In this document: positions 11,009-58,026 of the stretch, piece after piece | Numbering within the stretch: the first letter of the stretch is position 1 | Layout: every line of letters starts with the position of its first letter | From: Candidatus Moraniibacteriota bacterium | GTDB lineage: Bacteria; Patescibacteriota; Minisyncoccia; Moranbacterales; DUUL01 | DNA length: 60,969 bases | Direction: 5' to 3' | NCBI GenBank assembly: GCA_041583775.1 | Contig: JBFHFF010000008.1 | Coordinates: 1 to 60,969, forward strand | Notes under the pieces: generated by a model | What the model was told of the DNA's origin: nothing | The model's input: the letters and a program-made list of their open reading frames with translations, nothing else | The model's database searches: none | Program-made: the position numbers and the translations under genes

Positions 11009-12163
11009 CTAGAATTTCAAATAGGGAAGCATTTTTTCTCTTGAATATCTCCTCTTAATTTTCTCACTGTGTTTCTTTCCCTTTTGGATAAAGTCATTAT
11101 ACAATACTTTGTCTTCCAGAAAAAGGCTCATTGCCATTGAAATTTCCGCTGGGCGATATGGGTCGATCAAAATTGCTGCATCTTGGACAACTTCGGGAAG
11201 AGATGAACAATTTGAAGTGATGACTGGAACACCGCTTGCCATAGCTTCTATTGGGGGGAATCCAAACCCTTCAAAAAATGAGGGATAAACAAAAATCTTT
11301 GCTAATTTATAGACAATAACCTTGTCTTCACAGCTCACAAAACCTGTAAGTAAAATGTCTTCTTTGTTTGGGCTAGAGTCAACTGCTTGAATGATTTTTT
11401 CATATGACCAACCCATACTTCCTGCAATTACCAACTTCAAATTTTCATATGTCCTTCCATTTCCGCTTCTTTTTAAATGCTCAAAGGCTTTAATAAGGGA
11501 GATAATGTTCTTTCGTGGCTCAATTGTGCCTAGAAATAGAACAAATTCGTCTGGCAAATTATATTTTCTAATCATTTTCAAAGTATTGACGCTGGAAACA
11601 TTTGGCTCGCTAAAGCTTTTGATGTCCAATCGTGGATGCAAAATCTCGATTTTGTTTTTCTGAATACCATAGAGCATCACCAGATCTTCTTTTGTTGATT
11701 TTGAAACAGCAAGAATTCTATCAGCCCTCTTGCAAAGTTCTCTTGAATTCACAATAAAGTGCCACAACCTTCTTTTGCGAGAAAAATATTCTGGAAATCT
11801 TTCAAATGAAAGATCGTGAATAGTCAAGACGAATTTACATTTTTTTGAAAGTGCCAAAAAAGAAATGTTCGGGGCAAAAAAAACATCGACACCACCAAGT
11901 AGGATATCAATCTTTGGCCAACGAAAAAACCAAATCAAAAAATTTAAAAGTTTATTTGGGAAACCAAAGTCTCTAACTTCAACATTTGGATATTTTTCCA
12001 ACCAAGAAAGGTCTTCTTTTACTTTTTTAAAAGAGTTAATAAAAAGCAGATATTCATTCTCTGAATCTTGCTTGAAAAGTCGTTTCAAAAAACCGATTGT
12101 ATATTCTTCAACACCAGTCCTATTCCCCCCTGCTAAACATCTAATATCAATTCCGATTTTCAT
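11009..12163 (-). CDS. Glycosyltransferase family 4 (GT-B)
   Basis: EGFGFPPIEAMASGVPVI motif. 384 aa. Confidence 0.85.
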   Translation of the reverse strand: MKIGIDIRCLAGGNRTGVEEYTIGFLKRLFKQDSENEYLLFINSFKKVKEDLSWLEKYPNVEVRDFGFPNKLLNFLIWFFRWPKIDILLGGVDVFFAPNISFLALSKKCKFVLTIHDLSFERFPEYFSRKRRLWHFIVNSRELCKRADRILAVSKSTKEDLVMLYGIQKNKIEILHPRLDIKSFSEPNVSSVNTLKMIRKYNLPDEFVLFLGTIEPRKNIISLIKAFEHLKRSGNGRTYENLKLVIAGSMGWSYEKIIQAVDSSPNKEDILLTGFVSCEDKVIVYKLAKIFVYPSFFEGFGFPPIEAMASGVPVITSNCSSLPEVVQDAAILIDPYRPAEISMAMSLFLEDKVLYNDFIQKGKKHSEKIKRRYSREKMLPYLKF

Positions 12164-28865: not shown

Positions 28866-28893
28866 TTGACAATATCCCCCACTATGCTATATT
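28866..28893 (+). promoter_or_regulatory. Promoter with the same TTGACAATAT...TATGCTAT architecture as the three sRNA-unit promoters
   Basis: TTGACA (28866-28871), a 16-nt spacer ending in TGC, then TATATT (28888-28893). Confidence 0.45.
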
Positions 28894-28899
28894 AAATGT

Positions 28900-29014
28900 A
28901 ATATTAAAAATATTAGTACTTTTACACGCTTAACAAAGCCTCCTACCCCTGACTATTTTCGCCGCATAATTCTCTCCCAAGAATAAAAAACCGAATTTAG
29001 TCAGGGTTTTTTTT
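28900..29014 (+). ncRNA. Candidate ~115-nt small RNA with C/U-rich (anti-SD-like) motifs
   Basis: Bounded by the promoter above and a long-range hairpin CCCTGACTA (28947-28955) / TAGTCAGGG (28998-29006) followed by T8. Contains CCUCCU and an inner 5-bp hairpin presenting CUCCCA. No ORF inside. Confidence 0.35.
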
Positions 29015-29074
29015 GTTTATTTTTGCTATTTCACTGCTTATTATTCTCTTTTTTAGTTCAAGAAAAGGCCAGGG

Positions 29075-29272
29075 TGGATTTATACATTCATATTTTCCCA
29101 TTGAGCTTCAAAAAACGCTACTCTCTCCCATCTTTCTATCAAACTATGTGGGGGGACAAAAAATATAATAATATATAAAAAAATCAAGTTGAAGTCAAAC
29201 TGGTTTAGTTTGTGCTAAAAATTGCTATGGGAAGTCTAATGGATCCCCGCATCCGCGAGGATGACAGATTAG
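29075..29272 (+). pseudogene. Possible heavily decayed GIY-YIG (UPF0213-type) nuclease remnant
   Basis: One frame reads WIYTFIFSH*ASKNATLS...IKLKSNWFSLC*KLLWEV*WIPASARMTD*. The start and the palindromic WIPASARMTD tail resemble GIY-YIG family ends. Confidence 0.3.
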
Positions 29273-29426: not shown

Positions 29427-29570
29427 ATGGAACGAGAAACATTTCAAGCAATACAAAGGGTTTTAGATGCAGACCCCGAACTTGCAAAAAAGGTGTTTGC
29501 GATCGAGAATATATCTGATCACACACCACAACCCGAAGAAGAAACTTCGACTCAAAAAGAGTCAAAATAA
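29427..29570 (+). CDS. Small acidic protein, 47 aa (below the ORF-track cutoff)
   Basis: AAAGGAG lies 7 nt upstream of the ATG. Sequence is MERETFQAIQRVLDADPELAKKVFAIENISDHTPQPEEETSTQKESK, with TAA at 29568-29570 and an intrinsic terminator right after. Confidence 0.5.
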   Translation: MERETFQAIQRVLDADPELAKKVFAIENISDHTPQPEEETSTQKESK

Positions 29571-29616: not shown

Positions 29617-29654
29617 TTTCAAGCCATTTCAAAAACACTTTGTCTTATTTTTCA

Positions 29655-29711
29655 ATAAATAAAAAAGCACGGGAGATTTTCAAAAGTTTCTTTGAAAATC
29701 GCACCGTGCTG
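29655..29711 (-). terminator. Long-hairpin terminator of cassette gene A (conserved with 33815-33865)
   Basis: rc: AGCACGGTGCGATTTTCAAA-GAAACT-TTTGAAAATCTCCCGTGCT followed by TTTTTT. Confidence 0.7.
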
Positions 29712-29725
29712 TCAAATCCGAAACT

Positions 29726-30154
29726 TCACTCAAGCTCTTCTTCGCTTAGAATCTTGTCCATATTCCTTGCTCGCAAGATGATTATAGAAGCTTGTCTTGA
29801 AGCTTCTTTTTCGGCCAATTTGTAGCACTTGAGATATTTTGATTCCCTCTCAAGGTCAATCACTTGGGAAAAAACCTCTGCTTGAGCCATATAGCTAGCA
29901 ACAACTATAGCTACAATAGAATCAGCGTCAAGTCCCGTCTCTTTCATCCTAAGGATATCTCCTTCAGAAAACCCAAAGACTAAATCCGGGCAAACGAGAT
30001 TCTCCCCAGCAACAGACTGGGCACGCTTGGAATCAGGAGAGTTTTTTGCTTCTATTGAAGCTTGCCCTTGTGAATAACAAGGAACGGCAAAAAACAACAA
30101 GAAACCAAAAAACACTAACCAGAAACATTTTTTCCCTGCCCTGTCTTTCTTCAT
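29726..30154 (-). CDS. Small N-terminally anchored/secreted protein, cassette paralog A
   Basis: The track ORF runs to 30262, but GAGGAGG lies 6 nt upstream of ATG 30154, giving MKKDRAGKKCFWLVFFGFLLFFAVPCYSQGQ... (142 aa). A TTGACC-17-GATTAT promoter lies inside the longer ORF. Confidence 0.65.
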   Translation of the reverse strand: MKKDRAGKKCFWLVFFGFLLFFAVPCYSQGQASIEAKNSPDSKRAQSVAGENLVCPDLVFGFSEGDILRMKETGLDADSIVAIVVASYMAQAEVFSQVIDLERESKYLKCYKLAEKEASRQASIIILRARNMDKILSEEELE

Positions 30155-30361
30155 CACTTTCCTCCTCAAAAAAGTACTTGGGTTCACACAATGTGAACTT
30201 ATATTTAATCGCAAAAAATTATTACGATTTGAAATAATCTCATATTTATGAAATTTGGTCAATGCCTTTGTATACTGCGGTTTGATATCATTAAAAAACT
30301 TGCCTCATCGCTCACAAACAAAGGGGCTTGACAATATTTTTGAGTATGCTATTGTATAAGT

Positions 30362-30427
30362 AATCTCAAAAGAGATCACAATAATAAAAGCTGATAAATC
30401 ATTGATTTATCAGCTTTTCTCTTTTTT
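30362..30427 (+). ncRNA. Candidate ~60-nt sRNA, copy A
   Basis: TTGACA (30328-30333), 16 nt, TGC-TATTGT (30350-30355). The transcript is AAUCUCAAAAGAGAUCACAAUAAUAAAAGCUGAUAAAUCAUUGAUUUAUCAGCUUUUCUCUUUUUU. No ORF. Confidence 0.45.
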
Positions 30428-30470
30428 ATTTTATCAAACTCTTTTAAAAACAAAACAATTCTTTTATAAC

Positions 30471-30531: not shown

Positions 30532-31902
30532 TTATTTATGTGCTGGCGCTTTTTCCATTGTATGCTCCACTGCTTGCTTTGGTGCACTTTTTTGTTCTTC
30601 AGTTGGTGCTCCCAAGAAACCATGGAACAATATAATTGCAATCGTTCCCACGATACAAGTCACAATCATCGAAGAAGTTCCCGATTTAAACCAACTCTTG
30701 AAAGTGATAGGATTATCTGTTTGTTCTGATTTTGAAACCACAATCACATTCGCAGTTGATCCAATTGGTGAACCGTTTCCACCAAATCCAACTCCGAACA
30801 CAAGAGCCCACCACAAAAGATTTACCTCCAATCCCTGTGCTTGCAAATGCGCAATCATTGGAATCATCGCTATCGTAAATGGAATATTATCAACCAAAGC
30901 AGACATCACTGCACTTGCCCACAACACAATAACTGCAGTCATAACGATATTTTCTGTCCCCCCACTTACTAGAAATTTAGCTAGATACTCCAAAACTCCT
31001 GCATGCTCCAAGCCTCCCACAATCACAAAAAGTGCTGCAAAGAAACCTAGTACTGAAAGTTCCAATTTTGCAAAAATTTTCTGAGGATCTTTCTTTGGCG
31101 AAACAAACAAAAGCGTCAATGCTGCTCCGATAAGAGCCACGGTAGAAGGTGCAATATGCAAACTACTGTGCAAGAAAAACAATGCAACTACAAAACAAAG
31201 AATTGAAACTATAATCTTCAGTGTTTTCAGATCAGTAATGGCCTCTCTCTCATCCATCTTCATCAACTCTTCAATGTTTTGAGGTTTTTGCTTAAGCTCT
31301 TTGTTGAAAACAACTTTCAAAACAAGTAGCGTAGCAAGCCAAGCAAAGATAACTACTGGCATTGAATGCGTCAAAAATGTATTGAATCCAATATTAGCAG
31401 CTGACCCAATCATAATATTTGGTGGATCTCCAACAAGTGTTGCCACACCTCCTGTATCAGAAAGCAAAGCCTCTGCCATCAAAATTGGCATTGGATTGAT
31501 TTTCAAAATCTTTGTCACGATGATTGTAACAGGCACAATCAGGATGATTGTTGTTACATTGTCTAAGATCAAAGAAAGAAGTGTTGTCAAAGTTCCTAGT
31601 GCTATTACTAGCAACCAAGGGTTTCCTTTGGTTTTTTTAGCAGTATAGATTCCCAGATATTGGAAAGCTCCTGTTTCCTCTAAAACAGCAATGATTACCA
31701 TCATTCCCATCAACAACCCAATAGTGTTGAAGTCTATCGCACCCAAAGCTTGTTCTGGTGTATAGAAATCACCAAGCATTCCTGCAACAAGCATCACCAT
31801 TGCACCTGCAATTCCAATCACAGTACGATGGACTTTTTCGGAAATTATCAATCCGAAGGTTATCACGAAGATAGCCAAACTAATATAAAATGGATAATCC
31901 AT
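30532..31902 (-). CDS. ArsB/NhaD-superfamily ion transporter
   Basis: 456 aa with ~12 TM helices. The N-terminus MDYPFYISLAIFVITFGLIISEKVHRTVIGIAGAMVMLVAG is typical of this permease family. Confidence 0.7.
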   Translation of the reverse strand: MDYPFYISLAIFVITFGLIISEKVHRTVIGIAGAMVMLVAGMLGDFYTPEQALGAIDFNTIGLLMGMMVIIAVLEETGAFQYLGIYTAKKTKGNPWLLVIALGTLTTLLSLILDNVTTIILIVPVTIIVTKILKINPMPILMAEALLSDTGGVATLVGDPPNIMIGSAANIGFNTFLTHSMPVVIFAWLATLLVLKVVFNKELKQKPQNIEELMKMDEREAITDLKTLKIIVSILCFVVALFFLHSSLHIAPSTVALIGAALTLLFVSPKKDPQKIFAKLELSVLGFFAALFVIVGGLEHAGVLEYLAKFLVSGGTENIVMTAVIVLWASAVMSALVDNIPFTIAMIPMIAHLQAQGLEVNLLWWALVFGVGFGGNGSPIGSTANVIVVSKSEQTDNPITFKSWFKSGTSSMIVTCIVGTIAIILFHGFLGAPTEEQKSAPKQAVEHTMEKAPAHK

Positions 31903-32487: not shown

Positions 32488-32864
32488 TTCTAATAAAAAA
32501 ATTCACAAAGGTTGATTATAATTTATTATCTTTTAATTAAACCTCTCTCTTAACAATGAACTTCATCACGAATTTGGCAGCCATTAACCAAAGCCGTCTT
32601 TTACAATTTTCATTTCAATTGAAAAGTTTTGGCTCATTCAAAGATTGAGATATTTTAAAAACTCATTTCATTATAATTACACAAATAAAAAAAATTTTCA
32701 AGAGGCAAAAAATAAACATTTATCCCCCATACCTAAAGCAGATTTAAAGACAAATTGATTACACTAATCACCCCTTTTTTCTTTGACAAAATAAAAATAA
32801 TGTGCCACGATGTAACATTATGAGAGTGTTTCTCATAATAAAATCAACAAAAAAGGAGGATGTG

Positions 32865-33461
32865 ATGAGTGAAAAAAGAGTGGTTATTAAACCTTCTAGG
32901 AGAAAAATAATGGTGGATGCAATTTCAACATTCATCATTACGATCGGAGTATACCTGGTGATTTATTTTTTCATATTGCCAGCGTTTCAAGTGAGCCTGA
33001 GAGAGTTCTTGGGCACAAACAGCAATTTTTTCGTAAAAGTTTTTGACATAACACAGTTTGTGTCAAGAAACTTTGTGGCAACGGGGATTTTTCTTGGGGG
33101 ATTTTTCGCCTTCATCAGAGTCCAGCTGGGGATAAGAACCAGCTATATAGTGGAAGAGGAAAGGCTTATAATCCGCACTCCCTTCAAAGACGAGGAGATT
33201 CTTTTTTCGGAACTAGAAAACGCCTTTCTCTCTCACTCCAGAGCTGGGAGTATCCTACGATACTCCACCATAAGGCTGATGCCTAAAGGGCTTTATAAAA
33301 AAGAATTCTTTTTGGTTGGGGTAGAACAATATTTTTCCCTTCTATTAAAAATCGGGGGCAGAATGAAAAGGGCAGAAATTAGAAAAAAACTAGAGGGGGA
33401 AAAAATTCCAACTCCTTCAACTCCCTGCGAAAAAATAATCGGGAACTTGGCAAAAAAATAA
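32865..33461 (+). CDS. Membrane protein with a bacterial PH (YdbS/YdbT-like) domain
   Basis: AAGGAGG at 32853-32859 precedes ATG 32865 (MSEKRVVIKPSRRK...). Two TM helices are followed by ...EEERLIIRTPFKDEEILFSELENAFL. Confidence 0.5.
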   Translation: MSEKRVVIKPSRRKIMVDAISTFIITIGVYLVIYFFILPAFQVSLREFLGTNSNFFVKVFDITQFVSRNFVATGIFLGGFFAFIRVQLGIRTSYIVEEERLIIRTPFKDEEILFSELENAFLSHSRAGSILRYSTIRLMPKGLYKKEFFLVGVEQYFSLLLKIGGRMKRAEIRKKLEGEKIPTPSTPCEKIIGNLAKK

Positions 33462-33506
33462 CCTACCGAAACGGAAAATCTGCTTCGGTAGGTTTTCTGT
33501 TTTTTA
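33461..33506 (+). terminator. Intrinsic terminator
   Basis: ACCTACCGAA-N13-TTCGGTAGGT followed by TTTCTGTTTTTT. Confidence 0.7.
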
Positions 33507-33657
33507 GATCATAAATTAAAAAACCGTATCATCAATAGTTGTTCACTGCCACCTTTATGTTGTGAAAACTCCCCTTGTAAAAAACTCGTCTTGTCATTCA
33601 TAAGCACTCACAAACAACAAGGCTTGACAATATTTTTGAGTATGCTATTGTATAAGT

Positions 33658-33722
33658 AATCTCAAAAGAGACCACAATAATAAAACCCCGTAAATCATCT
33701 GATTTATCGGGTTTTTTCTTTG
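33658..33722 (+). ncRNA. Candidate ~60-nt sRNA, copy B
   Basis: TTGACA at 33624-33629 and TGC-TATTGT at 33646-33651. The transcript is AAUCUCAAAAGAGACCACAAUAAUAAAACCCCGUAAAUCAUCUGAUUUAUCGGGUUUUUUCUUU. Identical to copy C. Confidence 0.45.
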
Positions 33723-33814
33723 TGCTAAAATTTCCAAAAAGCATTTTTTTAAAAAACCATCTATACACAAAAATTTTCTATTTTTCTATAATGCATCACT
33801 TCTTTTTTGATAAA

Positions 33815-33865
33815 TAAAAAAAGCACGGGGATTTTCAGAAATTTCTCTGAAAATCTCACCGTGCT
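33815..33865 (-). terminator. Long-hairpin terminator of cassette gene B
   Basis: rc: AGCACGGTGAGATTTTCAGA-GAAAT-TTCTGAAAATCCCCGTGCT followed by a T-run. Confidence 0.7.
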
Positions 33866-33873
33866 GTTGGAAA

Positions 33874-34263
33874 TTATTTTATCCCCCCTTCTTTGATCTT
33901 TGCGGCGAATTCGTTCGCCATTTCTAAAATCTTCATGGCTGAGTCCAGAAAAAGAAGCATACTTTCTGCGTCCTCAGCTTCTTTCGCAATTTCCATATTC
34001 CTATGGAAATCTCGAATGTACCCCTTCCAGATAATTTTCTGGATCCTTTCTTCGGTATATCCGAGGTCCTCCAATCGAAGGACTTGGAAATCGACTAACT
34101 TCTGTTGCGGACACTCCGGTTGAAGTGTGACCACTACGGTCCTTCCAAAATCCTGCCCCGTCTCTGAACTTCCGCCTTTCTGGAACACAAAATAGTAAAG
34201 TCCCATTAGAAAAAAGACGCTCATAAAAAAACATAGAAAAAAACTCCGACTTTCCTTACGCAT
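33874..34263 (-). CDS. Small N-terminally anchored protein, cassette paralog B
   Basis: 129 aa, MRKESRSFFLCFFMSVFFLMGLYYFVF.... RBS GGGAGAGG lies 5 nt upstream of the ATG. Upstream promoter is TTGATA-17-TATGAT. Confidence 0.65.
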   Translation of the reverse strand: MRKESRSFFLCFFMSVFFLMGLYYFVFQKGGSSETGQDFGRTVVVTLQPECPQQKLVDFQVLRLEDLGYTEERIQKIIWKGYIRDFHRNMEIAKEAEDAESMLLFLDSAMKILEMANEFAAKIKEGGIK

Positions 34264-34447
34264 AATTCCTCTCCCGTGAGGTAATTTTTCAAACCTACAC
34301 CATGCAGGCTCATATTTTATCGCAAAAAATATTACGATTTTAAATCATATCATATGTTTATGCTTTTATCAACGCCACAAAAATACTTTGTAGTTCAATA
34401 TCCTCCAAAATACTTGACAATATTTTTGAGTATGCTATTGTATAAGT

Positions 34448-34512
34448 AATCTCAAAAGAGACCACAATAATAAAACCCCGTAAATCATCTGATTTATCGG
34501 GTTTTTTCTTTG
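34448..34512 (+). ncRNA. Candidate ~60-nt sRNA, copy C
   Basis: TTGACA at 34414-34419 and TGC-TATTGT at 34436-34441. Same sequence as copy B through the terminator and TTTGTGCTAAAATTT. Confidence 0.45.
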
Positions 34513-34836
34513 TGCTAAAATTTTATTCGCTAAGTCCAGAGATTTATCGGAACTTTTCTATCTAAAAAATAAAAGGATGCCTCCCTTGTTCCATAAAACC
34601 CGCTTCCAATGAGCGGGTTTTATGGTTTTGTGCTGCTTCCATTCAATCAGGAACCAATCACATCTCTTTTTTTGTTTGTGTTTTCTTTAAACACTTACTG
34701 AAATATTATACACCAAAAAATTGCTTTTGTTAATAGATCTTCTCTATGCTAATTTTAAATTAGCATCTGATAAAGAAGTGAAAGAGGACAACCATAGTAT
34801 ATGATTGCCCTCTTTTTTGACCTTTTTCTAAAGGTC

Positions 34837-35817
34837 TTATATTTTTTCGATTGACACTTCTCCCGTTTCTGTGTCATAGACAAGAATTCCGCCGCCGATC
34901 CCAAATGCACCATCTGGCGCTGGGATTGTTATTGGGTTGAAAATTTTAGCCAGTCTTAATATTGGTTTTCTTGAAACATAATATTTTCGAATCTTCTCAA
35001 AAAGCATGAAATCTCCATGGAACAAATAGCCACCCAGCATAGCAAAAGGGATGGTCACCAGGAAAATCGGCATAAGCCAAAGACTGCAAAACATTTTGAT
35101 TAGATTCTGATCAACAACAAATTGCCATCTTGCATGATTGTGACCACAAAAGATTTTTTCGATCTTTCCAGTTCTCAAAAAAGATCTGATCGGCATCTCT
35201 AGGCGATGATTCCGCAGGGAATCAAAATCGTGAGCAATAATAATCACCTGTTCCTGAGAATTCTCAATCACCTTGCGAAATTGCTCAGCAAATTCATTCT
35301 CAAGATTTTTCAACCAATCTTTTTTATCCTTTTCGACAAATAAATACGGAACAAGAATAAACCTCTTGCCCCCAAATAAAAAGGAGTGGAAGAGTTTGTC
35401 TCGCTCGGCAACTTTCAAAAAATTCTGAACAGATTTTTCTGATATTCCACCAAGTGGATCAGAGGTCAAAGGCAAATGTCCATATCCCAATTCATGATTT
35501 CCAGCGGTCATCTCGACTCTTGCCTGAGAACCACTTTTCAATGTGGCAATTGATTCTTGTAACGCTGAAACATCCTCTTCTGAAGTCAATCCTCGCTCAT
35601 TAAAAGTGTTCTCTTGCATGTCACCGCACAGAATCACTCTATTTATCTTGTTTCTCATAAGAAAAAAAGATATACGTATCACATCGCTTCTCTTCTTGCC
35701 AAAGAATTTAGCAAGAAACACAAGAAACAGTTCGAAAAAACTCCGCCTTTGGCTTTCGAATTTCTTCTTTGAAAAAGGCATTCCGTGTAGATCACCAGAA
35801 ATCGCTATTTTTGCCAT
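34837..35817 (-). CDS. Calcineurin-like metallophosphoesterase with C-terminal membrane segments
   Basis: Motifs ISGDLHG, CGDMQEN, GNHE and CGHNH. GGGGGAG lies 4 nt upstream of ATG 35817. The track start 35835 is a TTG. Confidence 0.85.
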   Translation of the reverse strand: MAKIAISGDLHGMPFSKKKFESQRRSFFELFLVFLAKFFGKKRSDVIRISFFLMRNKINRVILCGDMQENTFNERGLTSEEDVSALQESIATLKSGSQARVEMTAGNHELGYGHLPLTSDPLGGISEKSVQNFLKVAERDKLFHSFLFGGKRFILVPYLFVEKDKKDWLKNLENEFAEQFRKVIENSQEQVIIIAHDFDSLRNHRLEMPIRSFLRTGKIEKIFCGHNHARWQFVVDQNLIKMFCSLWLMPIFLVTIPFAMLGGYLFHGDFMLFEKIRKYYVSRKPILRLAKIFNPITIPAPDGAFGIGGGILVYDTETGEVSIEKI

Positions 35818-57841: not shown

Positions 57842-58026
57842 TTTTTGTATTCTCAATAAGTCAATTAGAGTTTCTACAGAACTTGTTTTCCGCCATTCAA
57901 TCAATCTAAATACCAAAATATTCTCAATCACAAGTTTCAAAGCTTCTTTTATATTAACAAAATCTCAACTTATTAGCAATTGAAATAATCTTCAAATTCA
58001 AATTTTACATCGACTACTGCATTGAA

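Follow-up and report, generated by a model that had tools for sequence, protein, structure and literature searches.

Two colinear small-protein/sRNA cassettes in a Candidatus Moraniibacteriota genome conserve their expression signals far better than their coding sequences

Results

Layout of the two cassettes

We analyzed a stretch of 60,969 nt from Candidatus Moraniibacteriota bacterium (the window; contig JBFHFF010000008.1 of assembly GCA_041583775.1, GC content 34.8%) and within these 61 kb read two colinear cassettes, cassette 1 at 29655-30437 and cassette 2 at 33812-34523. Each is a unit of about 0.8 kb in which a minus-strand gene for a small protein lies back to back with a gene of about 65 nt for a small RNA (sRNA). 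The protein gene has a long terminator and a leader with two hairpins (hp1 and hp2) and a Shine-Dalgarno sequence (SD). Four conserved islands follow each other in the same order and orientation in both units (Table 1), and the -35 boxes of the divergent promoters are 66 bp apart in cassette 1 and 42 bp apart in cassette 2. An earlier inspection of the letters, hereafter the sequence-only reading, had placed this shared layout at 29655-30427 and 33815-34523, and we recovered every feature where it had been described.

Cassette 1 is also present in an independent assembly. Logan contig L001 (SRR29257450) matches window 28.7-30.35 kb exactly and encodes the gene1 protein; it ends inside the repeated sRNA promoter, i.e., the k-mer assembler broke at the repeat.

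Table 1. Coordinates and predicted properties of the elements of both cassettes and of the stand-alone sRNA copy.
Feature	Position	Strand	Properties
Gene1 terminator	29655..29712	-	Bipartite 18-bp hairpin (outer stem AGCACGG/CCGUGCU, inner stem 11 bp), then U6; fold -23.1 kcal/mol, z -6.2; conserved block reaches 29644
Gene1	29726..30154	-	142 aa; SD AGGAGG
Gene1 5' leader	30155..30230	-	hp1, then hp2, then SD
Gene1 hp2	30182-30198		GUUCACA-UUG-UGUGAAC
Gene1 hp1	30208-30229		AAUCGUAA/UUGCGAUU; 5'-proximal
Gene1 predicted promoter	30234..30262	-	TTGACC-17-TG-GATTAT; from promoter scan and alignment with gene2 promoter
sRNA unit, copy A	30327..30437	+	Promoter TTGACA-16-TATTGT at 30328-30355; fold z -6.7
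sRNA copy A, predicted transcript	~30362-30424	+	~63 nt
sRNA unit, copy B	33623..33733	+	Stand-alone; 3' of a 219-aa plus-strand gene, just before gene2 terminator
Gene2 terminator	33812..33867	-	Homologous to gene1 terminator; fold -25.3 kcal/mol, z -7.7; conserved block to 33799
Gene2	33874..34263	-	129 aa
Gene2 5' leader	34264..34341	-	SD GGAGAGGA
Gene2 hp2	34293-34309		Extendable to 34291-34311
Gene2 hp1	34319-34339
Gene2 predicted promoter	34344..34372	-	TTGATA-17-TG-TATGAT
sRNA unit, copy C	34413..34523	+	Divergent from gene2; fold z -6.4

Conserved islands alternate with randomized sequence

Cassette 1 was aligned with cassette 2 segment by segment, and the alignments were scored against shuffled sequences. 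The gene terminators with their tails (29644-29712 block against 33799-33870) share 84% identity (z 23). The block of hp2, hp1 and gene promoter shares 77% (z 12), and its best 50-column leader window reaches 86% (30198-30247 against 34309-34357). Between sRNA copies A and C, promoter and 5' domain match at 61 of 62 positions (z 25) and the terminators are 73% identical (z 6). No significant nucleotide similarity was found between the coding sequences (CDSs) of gene1 and gene2 (z 2.5 against shuffles), outside both unit ends (z 0.9 and 2.4), in the SD-proximal untranslated region (UTR), i.e., the last 30 nt ahead of the start codon (z -0.7), or in the spacer that separates the divergent promoters (z 0.8). 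The sequence-only reading had claimed that the flanks are kept far better than the CDS, which formal alignment confirms with z 6-25 for the islands against 2.5 for the CDS, and the 5' UTR/promoter blocks align as it had described. It had also counted about 5 substitutions and 2 indels between the gene terminators; our recount corrects this slightly, to 4 substitutions and 1 indel in the hairpin plus one difference in T-run length.

In a protein-guided codon alignment, codon positions 1 and 2 are 42% and 51% identical, and position 3 is 26% identical, compared with a random expectation of 25.6%. With third positions at random identity, synonymous divergence (dS) is saturated and the ratio of nonsynonymous to synonymous divergence (dN/dS) is not estimable. 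Because third codon positions, spacer and SD-proximal UTR are all saturated, the contrast between flanks and CDS is no artefact of a recent duplication.

The conserved islands coincide with promoters and co-varying hairpins, as selection on RNA structure and expression signals would predict. Of the earlier proposal that such selection acts while the protein diversifies or is swapped in, this first part stands, and diversification and swapping each have observations in their favor. Perfect runs measure 49 bp between sRNA copies A and C and 111 bp between copies B and C, and do not exceed 13 bp in terminator and leader. Given the two long runs, gene conversion is no less likely than selection for the sRNA 5' block.

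Compensatory changes in four hairpins

All four hairpins fold far better than shuffled sequences. Over their 48 pairs we counted seven double compensatory changes, three wobble-compatible single changes and two broken pairs. Double changes affect three of the seven pairs in hp2, one pair in the gene terminator, two in the sRNA terminator and one in hp1, the last in comparison with the related genome L002 (see below); this covariation is drawn from two to three sequences per element.

In hp2, GUUCACA-UUG-UGUGAAC of cassette 1 is replaced by GCCUGCA-UGG-UGUAGGU in cassette 2, i.e., five of the seven pairs differ, three through changes in both strands of the stem, and all seven can still form. 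The sequence-only reading was silent on hp2 with its three double changes, and on the third sRNA copy. It had proposed that paired changes preserve both terminator stems. For the gene terminator this is correct, with one A-U pair switched to G-C and the other 17 of 18 pairs unchanged. It is correct for the sRNA terminator too: among 15 pairs we found two double switches (G-C to C-G and U-A to C-G), one wobble change and one C.C mismatch.

Since hp1 starts a few nucleotides after the aligned gene promoters, it would sit at the 5' end of the mRNA. Its loop is 1 nt longer in one copy than in the other, which fits an RNA stem-loop better than a DNA operator of fixed spacing. The hp1 motif AATCGNAA-N3-10-TTNCGAT has two sites in the window, both in the cassette leaders, compared with 0.02 expected. 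Across about 580 kb of other loci (L001 excluded, as it duplicates part of the window) it has a single site, which is again a leader, in L002. A fuzzy hp1 search over all loci returned nothing beyond the window cassettes and L002, and Rfam, at gathering and permissive thresholds, returned no family for leader or terminators. The leader pattern (-10 box plus hp1) had no match in IMG/VR and two in the JGI metagenomes, both in the same CDS of an unrelated organism and ascribed to chance. Within the window, a leader-promoter match upstream of the POR gene (57967-57991) is weak and lacks a hairpin, and was judged generic -10 similarity.

Three copies of the sRNA gene

According to the promoter scan, the sRNA promoter reads TTGACA-16-TGc-TATTGT, i.e., the -35 box matches the consensus, the spacer measures 16 nt and the -10 box is of the extended type. 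The predicted sRNA of about 63-66 nt has a 4-bp hairpin (UCUC-AAAA-GAGA) in its 5' part, then the A-rich linker (U)CACAAUAAUAAAA and finally a 15-bp terminator with U-tract. In silico, the sRNA interval holds no ATG and no open reading frame (ORF), and the downstream genes are convergent. A 48-mer is exact in all three copies, with 0 expected.

Copies B and C are 100% identical over 111 nt, and gene2 is thus bracketed by perfect 111-bp direct repeats, 790 bp apart. Homologous recombination between them could delete or re-insert gene2. About 20 nt upstream of the -35 box of copy B resemble copy A (CTCACAAACAA..GGC), whereas from there on copy B is the same as copy C. Such a patchwork suggests that the sRNA copies have undergone gene conversion or were duplicated recently. 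An obligatory link between sRNA and protein gene was not supported, as copy B has neither leader nor partner gene beside it and a leader-bearing gene of L002 comes without sRNA; we hence conclude that gene and sRNA are separable.

Rfam, again at gathering and permissive thresholds, returned no sRNA family, and exact or IUPAC sRNA patterns gave 0 matches in the JGI metagenomes and IMG/VR. An sRNA covariance model run over 438 kb (the window plus 29 loci with about 380 kb of related Patescibacteria) found only generic terminators; its best match (locus L030, 32 bits) has no promoter. The best duplexes of the 28-nt sRNA 5' domain with the two cassette mRNAs, at -15.4 kcal/mol for mRNA1 and -12.2 kcal/mol for mRNA2, do not stand out from those with random 550-nt windows (mean -12.4 kcal/mol, sd 4.3), of which 10% reach the mRNA1 and 42% the mRNA2 energy.

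The encoded proteins P1 and P2

P1, the 142-aa product of gene1, has a basic N-terminus, one hydrophobic segment at about residues 10-28, a low-confidence linker of about 30 aa that contains a Cys-Pro, and an acidic helical C-terminal domain. The same architecture is found in P2 (gene2, 129 aa), with a transmembrane segment at about residues 8-28 and a C-terminal helical hairpin. The linker Cys-Pro is at residue 55 in P1 and 51 in P2. Kyte-Doolittle hydropathy (KD19) has maxima of 2.0 (P1, residue 10) and 2.2 (P2, residue 8), and in both proteins an acidic helical domain of about 100 aa (pI 4.8-4.9) follows the N-terminal segment. AlphaFold2 (AF2) models from single sequences are of low confidence, with predicted local distance difference test (pLDDT) scores of 64 (P1, an all-helical model) and 68 (P2). 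They give the same order of elements for both, i.e., an N-terminal membrane helix, a linker of about 30 residues, a short helix and two long helices.

P1 and P2 are 23-24% identical (BLASTP E 0.009 in a single comparison), in line with the weak common core noticed before. In a shuffle test, p was 0.03 for the full-length proteins and 0.08 without the hydrophobic N-terminus. Taking sequences and models together, we regard it as probable, though not proven, that P1 and P2 are highly diverged paralogues belonging to a lineage-specific type of helical protein that is exported or anchored.

Pfam gave no domain in either protein. A word-indexed search of 5.8 billion clusters returned P1 and P2 themselves only (about 15 billion proteins were covered overall). 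An exhaustive hidden Markov model search of 1.84 billion representatives returned the self-matches plus a eukaryotic leucine-rich repeat (LRR) protein, P0003, which matches a 24-residue stretch eight times and was judged spurious. Foldseek comparison of the models with the PDB found nothing below E 0.3.

An indel hot spot in comparison with L002

The protein sequence of the CitMHS-family transporter of the window (30532..31902, minus strand) shares 94% identity with its counterpart in the closest relative, the 'Candidatus Moraniibacteriota' metagenome-assembled genome (MAG) L002 (JBFHIG010000003), and 82-85% with those of two further Patescibacteria MAGs. L002 was compared over 21 kb, which together with the window makes 82 kb. 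An atpD-atpC-CBS-CitMHS backbone is common to related genomes (L003, L006 and L008), and the window and L002 add a metallophosphoesterase gene after atpC.

Compared with L002, cassette 1 is an indel of about 845 bp, bordered exactly by the terminator of the transporter gene on one side and by that of a conserved 47-aa gene on the other. Window 32715-34582, with the 219-aa membrane protein, sRNA copy B and cassette 2, corresponds to about 600 nt of repeat-rich non-coding DNA in L002. Neither an sRNA copy nor a P1/P2 homologue was found in the 21 kb of L002, and both cassettes are absent at the syntenic sites. Being indels relative to L002, the cassettes are accessory modules and occupy a hot spot of indels. 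Synteny with L002 in the flanks on either side backs the assembly order of the window.

In L002, the 47-aa gene and a conserved sRNA candidate (see the last section) flank a gene for a 156-aa N-terminally anchored protein; this protein has no counterpart in the window. Upstream of it we found a promoter (TTGACA-17-TATAGC), hp1 at the same distance as in the cassettes (AAAUCGAAA...UUUCGAUUU) and then an hp2-like hairpin. Compared with the window, L002 hp1 has a double change from U.G to A-U. With E 0.7 and 1.7, the 156-aa protein has no relationship to P1 and P2. It has 24 homologues with 43-61% identity; the three distinct upstream regions recovered from ten of their loci are without a window-type leader. 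The same leader thus stands before an unrelated protein whose homologues have other leaders, i.e., it is not tied to one protein family, and this keeps alive the possibility that cassette contents are swapped.

The GC content at third codon positions (GC3) is 0.39 in gene1 and 0.48 in gene2, compared with 0.23-0.34 in backbone genes. More generally, the genes inserted relative to the backbone (29726-30154, 32862-33461, 33874-34263 and 34837-35817) have GC3 values of 0.37-0.48, a compositional hint of foreign or young origin.

Discussion

A proposed old duplication with selected signals

We favor, with a probability of roughly 0.55, an old segmental duplication in the indel hot spot, with selected RNA and expression signals, concerted sRNA copies and fast-evolving exported proteins. 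One transcription module of about 0.8 kb would have been duplicated long ago in an indel-prone stretch and have given rise to two paralogous cassettes. The first part of the module would be a monocistronic mRNA with a sigma-70-type promoter, hp1 and hp2, and an unusually long bipartite intrinsic terminator, encoding a small protein that is exported or anchored in the membrane; the second part would be the back-to-back sRNA of about 63-66 nt with its own strong promoter and terminator. Purifying selection on the islands would maintain signals that set transcription and mRNA life-time, with the 5'-terminal hairpin and the strong 3' hairpin shielding the mRNA from 5'- and 3'-end-dependent decay. 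The sRNA copies may have been homogenized further by gene conversion or recent duplication. By analogy with sibling sRNAs, the sRNA might act in trans, with unlinked targets or a protein as its partner instead of the gene next to it. P1 and P2 would then be fast-evolving helical paralogues that face the surface or the periplasm, under weak or diversifying constraint. Shared architecture, element order and a borderline similarity (BLASTP E 0.009) speak for divergence in place.

Several observations weigh against the duplication. Covariation statistics from two to three sequences per element are weak, and the homology of P1 and P2 is statistically insecure (p 0.08 for the soluble parts, AF2 models of low confidence). 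Patchy gene conversion may explain the islands, the perfect runs of 49 and 111 bp being signs of conversion or duplication active here. The leader before an unrelated CDS in L002 means that the regulatory part can exist apart from the P1/P2 family. No specific sRNA target emerged among gene starts or tiles of the 61-kb window; the best duplexes, at -19 kcal/mol, lie inside the phosphoesterase and transporter CDSs and are unconvincing. A third hairpin that would mask the SD, suggested by minimum free energy folds, was dismissed, as the SD pairing probabilities of 0.27 and 0.38 are no higher than in other genes.

Alternative explanations

Promoter with leader, terminator and sRNA gene could instead be separable parts of a portable regulatory frame that recombination attaches to, or swaps among, unrelated small ORFs, with P1 and P2 as different cargos and the sRNA repeats as homology arms; we rate this as possible, yet rather improbable. 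Such exchange would agree with the L002 arrangement, where promoter, hp1 and hp2 stand at the same spacing before an unrelated N-anchored protein, and with the three distinct upstream regions of its homologues that lack this leader. It would also agree with the indel nature of both cassettes, the 111-bp repeats around gene2, the atypical GC3 of both genes and the lack of significant similarity between the soluble domains of P1 and P2. Putative mobile promoters have been defined by an identity of 80% or more across 50 nt or more upstream of genes that belong to the same genome, in a screen that left out paralogues (Nijveen, Matus-Garcia & van Passel 2012, PMC3575422). The 86% identity over 50 nt before CDSs without nucleotide similarity agrees with these limits, and the cassettes resemble mobile promoters (PMC3575422) further in the RNA structure of the reused region and in the same leader type before an unrelated gene of a sister species. 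In contrast to mobile promoters, the cassettes also keep a 3' terminator and an sRNA gene, no mobility mechanism is visible, and P1 and P2 may be very diverged paralogues, even if the L002 cargo is clearly unrelated. Length, topology, Cys-Pro position and predicted helix order are common to P1 and P2, which speaks against different cargos. Moreover, terminator and sRNA are absent from the L002 leader locus, i.e., no complete frame has been seen moving, and perfect runs of at most 13 bp in terminator and leader are too short for efficient homologous exchange. We found no recombinase, terminal inverted repeat or convincing target-site duplication at the cassettes, whose junctions show only low-complexity GTTTTTG, and leaders might also become alike through a common regulator or common selection. 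An integrase-free cassette system, in which unrelated or de novo surface-protein ORFs are slotted into the frame and the sRNA gene serves as recombination anchor, appears improbable to us; if it existed, it would imply rapid turnover of cell-surface proteins in an episymbiotic bacterium of the candidate phyla radiation (CPR). An integron attC cassette was rejected, as each ORF has its own promoter and leader and the 3' hairpin is followed by a U-tract, i.e., is a terminator. No integrase was found among nine neighbouring proteins scanned with Pfam.

The conserved leader could also be read as DNA. The palindrome ATCGnAA-N6/7-TTnCGAT 3' of the -10 box would then be the site of a dimeric repressor that co-regulates small exported proteins. 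It lies at a repressor-typical position, marks exactly the three leader-bearing genes in the 82 kb of two genomes, and is a perfect palindrome in L002, where the change relative to the window is symmetric. Against an operator, the half-site spacing differs (6 and 7 nt) between the window copies, and the asymmetry of the window half-sites gives U.G on the sense RNA and C.A on the other strand. In addition, hp2, which has no conserved DNA sequence, co-varies as RNA, and the Pfam scan of neighbouring proteins found no adjacent regulator gene. We consider the operator unlikely. Even less credible is a type I toxin-antitoxin (TA)-like pair, with a membrane-protein toxin whose mRNA is repressed by the divergent sRNA. 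In type I systems such as tisB/istR-1, shoB/ohsC and zorO/orzO, which also occur as duplicated loci, the antitoxin sRNA is divergent. The cassettes resemble them in the adjacent sRNA gene with its back-to-back promoter, the protein with one hydrophobic helix, the structured 5' UTR and the duplicated accessory locus. P1 and P2, however, are with 129-142 aa two to three times too long and carry a soluble acidic domain of about 100 aa, unlike hydrophobic peptides of at most 60 aa. The transcripts do not overlap, sRNA-mRNA duplexes remain within the random-window background, and sRNA copy B is unpaired. A toxin-antitoxin pair hence fails on toxin size and lack of complementarity.

Finally, the two cassettes might be a coincidence of generic terminators, promoters and repetitive extragenic palindromic (REP)-like repeats, or a mis-assembly at repeats. 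The genome is AT-rich with many similar terminators, generic ones being picked by the covariance model at 15-32 bits; another promoter (28866) resembles the sRNA promoter, and the k-mer assembler broke L001 inside the repeat. Yet island z scores of 6-25 in four colinear islands of the same orientation and spacing, a 48-mer found three times with 0 expected, and two hp1 sites with 0.02 expected are hardly generic, and both the exact match to L001 and the synteny with L002 stand against mis-assembly. Coincidence is therefore the explanation to which we give least credence. The sequence-only reading had itself considered that REP-like elements might produce the similar flanks; in the window, there are only two to three copies, all within 4.9 kb and colinear. 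A REP or miniature inverted-repeat transposable element (MITE) was likewise rejected, as the end-to-end inverted match is an 18-nt AT-rich terminator tail confined to cassette 1, and GTTTTTG is of low complexity.

Relation to known RNA systems

Sibling trans-acting sRNAs such as Qrr1-5, PrrF1/2 and OmrA/B are encoded by several paralogous genes of the same genome, and every copy has a promoter and a Rho-independent terminator of its own. The window sRNA is similar in that it has three copies with a conserved 5' region and its own predicted promoter and terminator; the 5'/seed part is near-invariant (61/62), and the terminator stems diverge yet still pair. It differs in that copies A and C are each joined back to back to one of two probably paralogous protein genes, and in that no Rfam, metagenome or related-locus homologue was found. 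The leaders may be compared with 5' stabilizer stem-loops of long-lived mRNAs, i.e., the ompA 5' UTR of E. coli and the aprE and ermC leaders of B. subtilis. Common to both are a stem-loop a few nucleotides from the 5' end (predicted in the cassettes) and, at the 3' end, a hairpin of high stability, the mRNA being monocistronic and encoding an exported protein, whereas the hp1 sequence family is lineage-specific and the transcription start site in the window is a predicted one. The sRNA, leader and terminator family, seen here in one genome and, for the leader, once in a sister species, is new and lineage-restricted, but of familiar kinds and no new category.

CPR/Patescibacteria have tiny genomes and are mostly uncultured, and their regulation at the RNA level is almost unstudied, which makes the cassettes testable candidates for post-transcriptional control. 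Their signals were maintained across a duplication old enough to erase synonymous sites. Orphan exported or anchored proteins in an indel hot spot are, moreover, the type of gene expected at the host-cell interface. Should the regulatory frame be portable after all, such genomes would have a way to recruit strong expression signals without classical mobile-element machinery.

Further features near the cassettes

A second, unrelated sRNA candidate lies at window 28866-29017 (plus strand) and at L002 12765-12914 (minus strand), in syntenic position, with the same layout and 66% identity. Its promoter, TTGACA-16-TATATT, is strong and resembles the cassette sRNA promoter; then come a 5' hairpin, the C-rich and unpaired AGCCUCCUACCCC, and a long terminator whose inner loop contains CUCUCCC. 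The C-rich motifs look anti-Shine-Dalgarno-like, and the candidate has no Rfam match.

A REP-like, GC-rich palindrome is found in AT-rich intergenic DNA at window 29240-29266 and L002 8383-8416 (GGATCCCCGCATCCGCGAGGATGACA / TGTCATCCC...GGGGATGACA). It adjoins short tandem motifs of the AATTCGAAATTC and TTAACGGA types; L002 has several in the same hot-spot regions. The 47-aa ORF mentioned above (window 29427-29570, plus strand; L002 about 11480-11630, minus strand; MERETFQAIQRVLDADPELAKKV...) has its own SD and terminator, and its DPELAKKV motif and upstream region are conserved, making a genuine small protein likely.

Only 9 of 50 longest-ORF starts in the window, taken uncurated, have an upstream match to AGGAGG in at least four of six positions, and gene1 has the perfect motif; this suggests, no more than tentatively, that ribosome binding is unusually strong in the cassette genes. 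A 15-bp hairpin, CCATAAAACCCGC...GCGGGTTTTATGG, occurs at window 34591-34625 and L002 8556-8590, in the non-coding stretch that separates the phosphoesterase gene from the variable segment. About 150 nt around it are 82% conserved between window and L002, and the hairpin is possibly a terminator that works in both directions or some other structured RNA.

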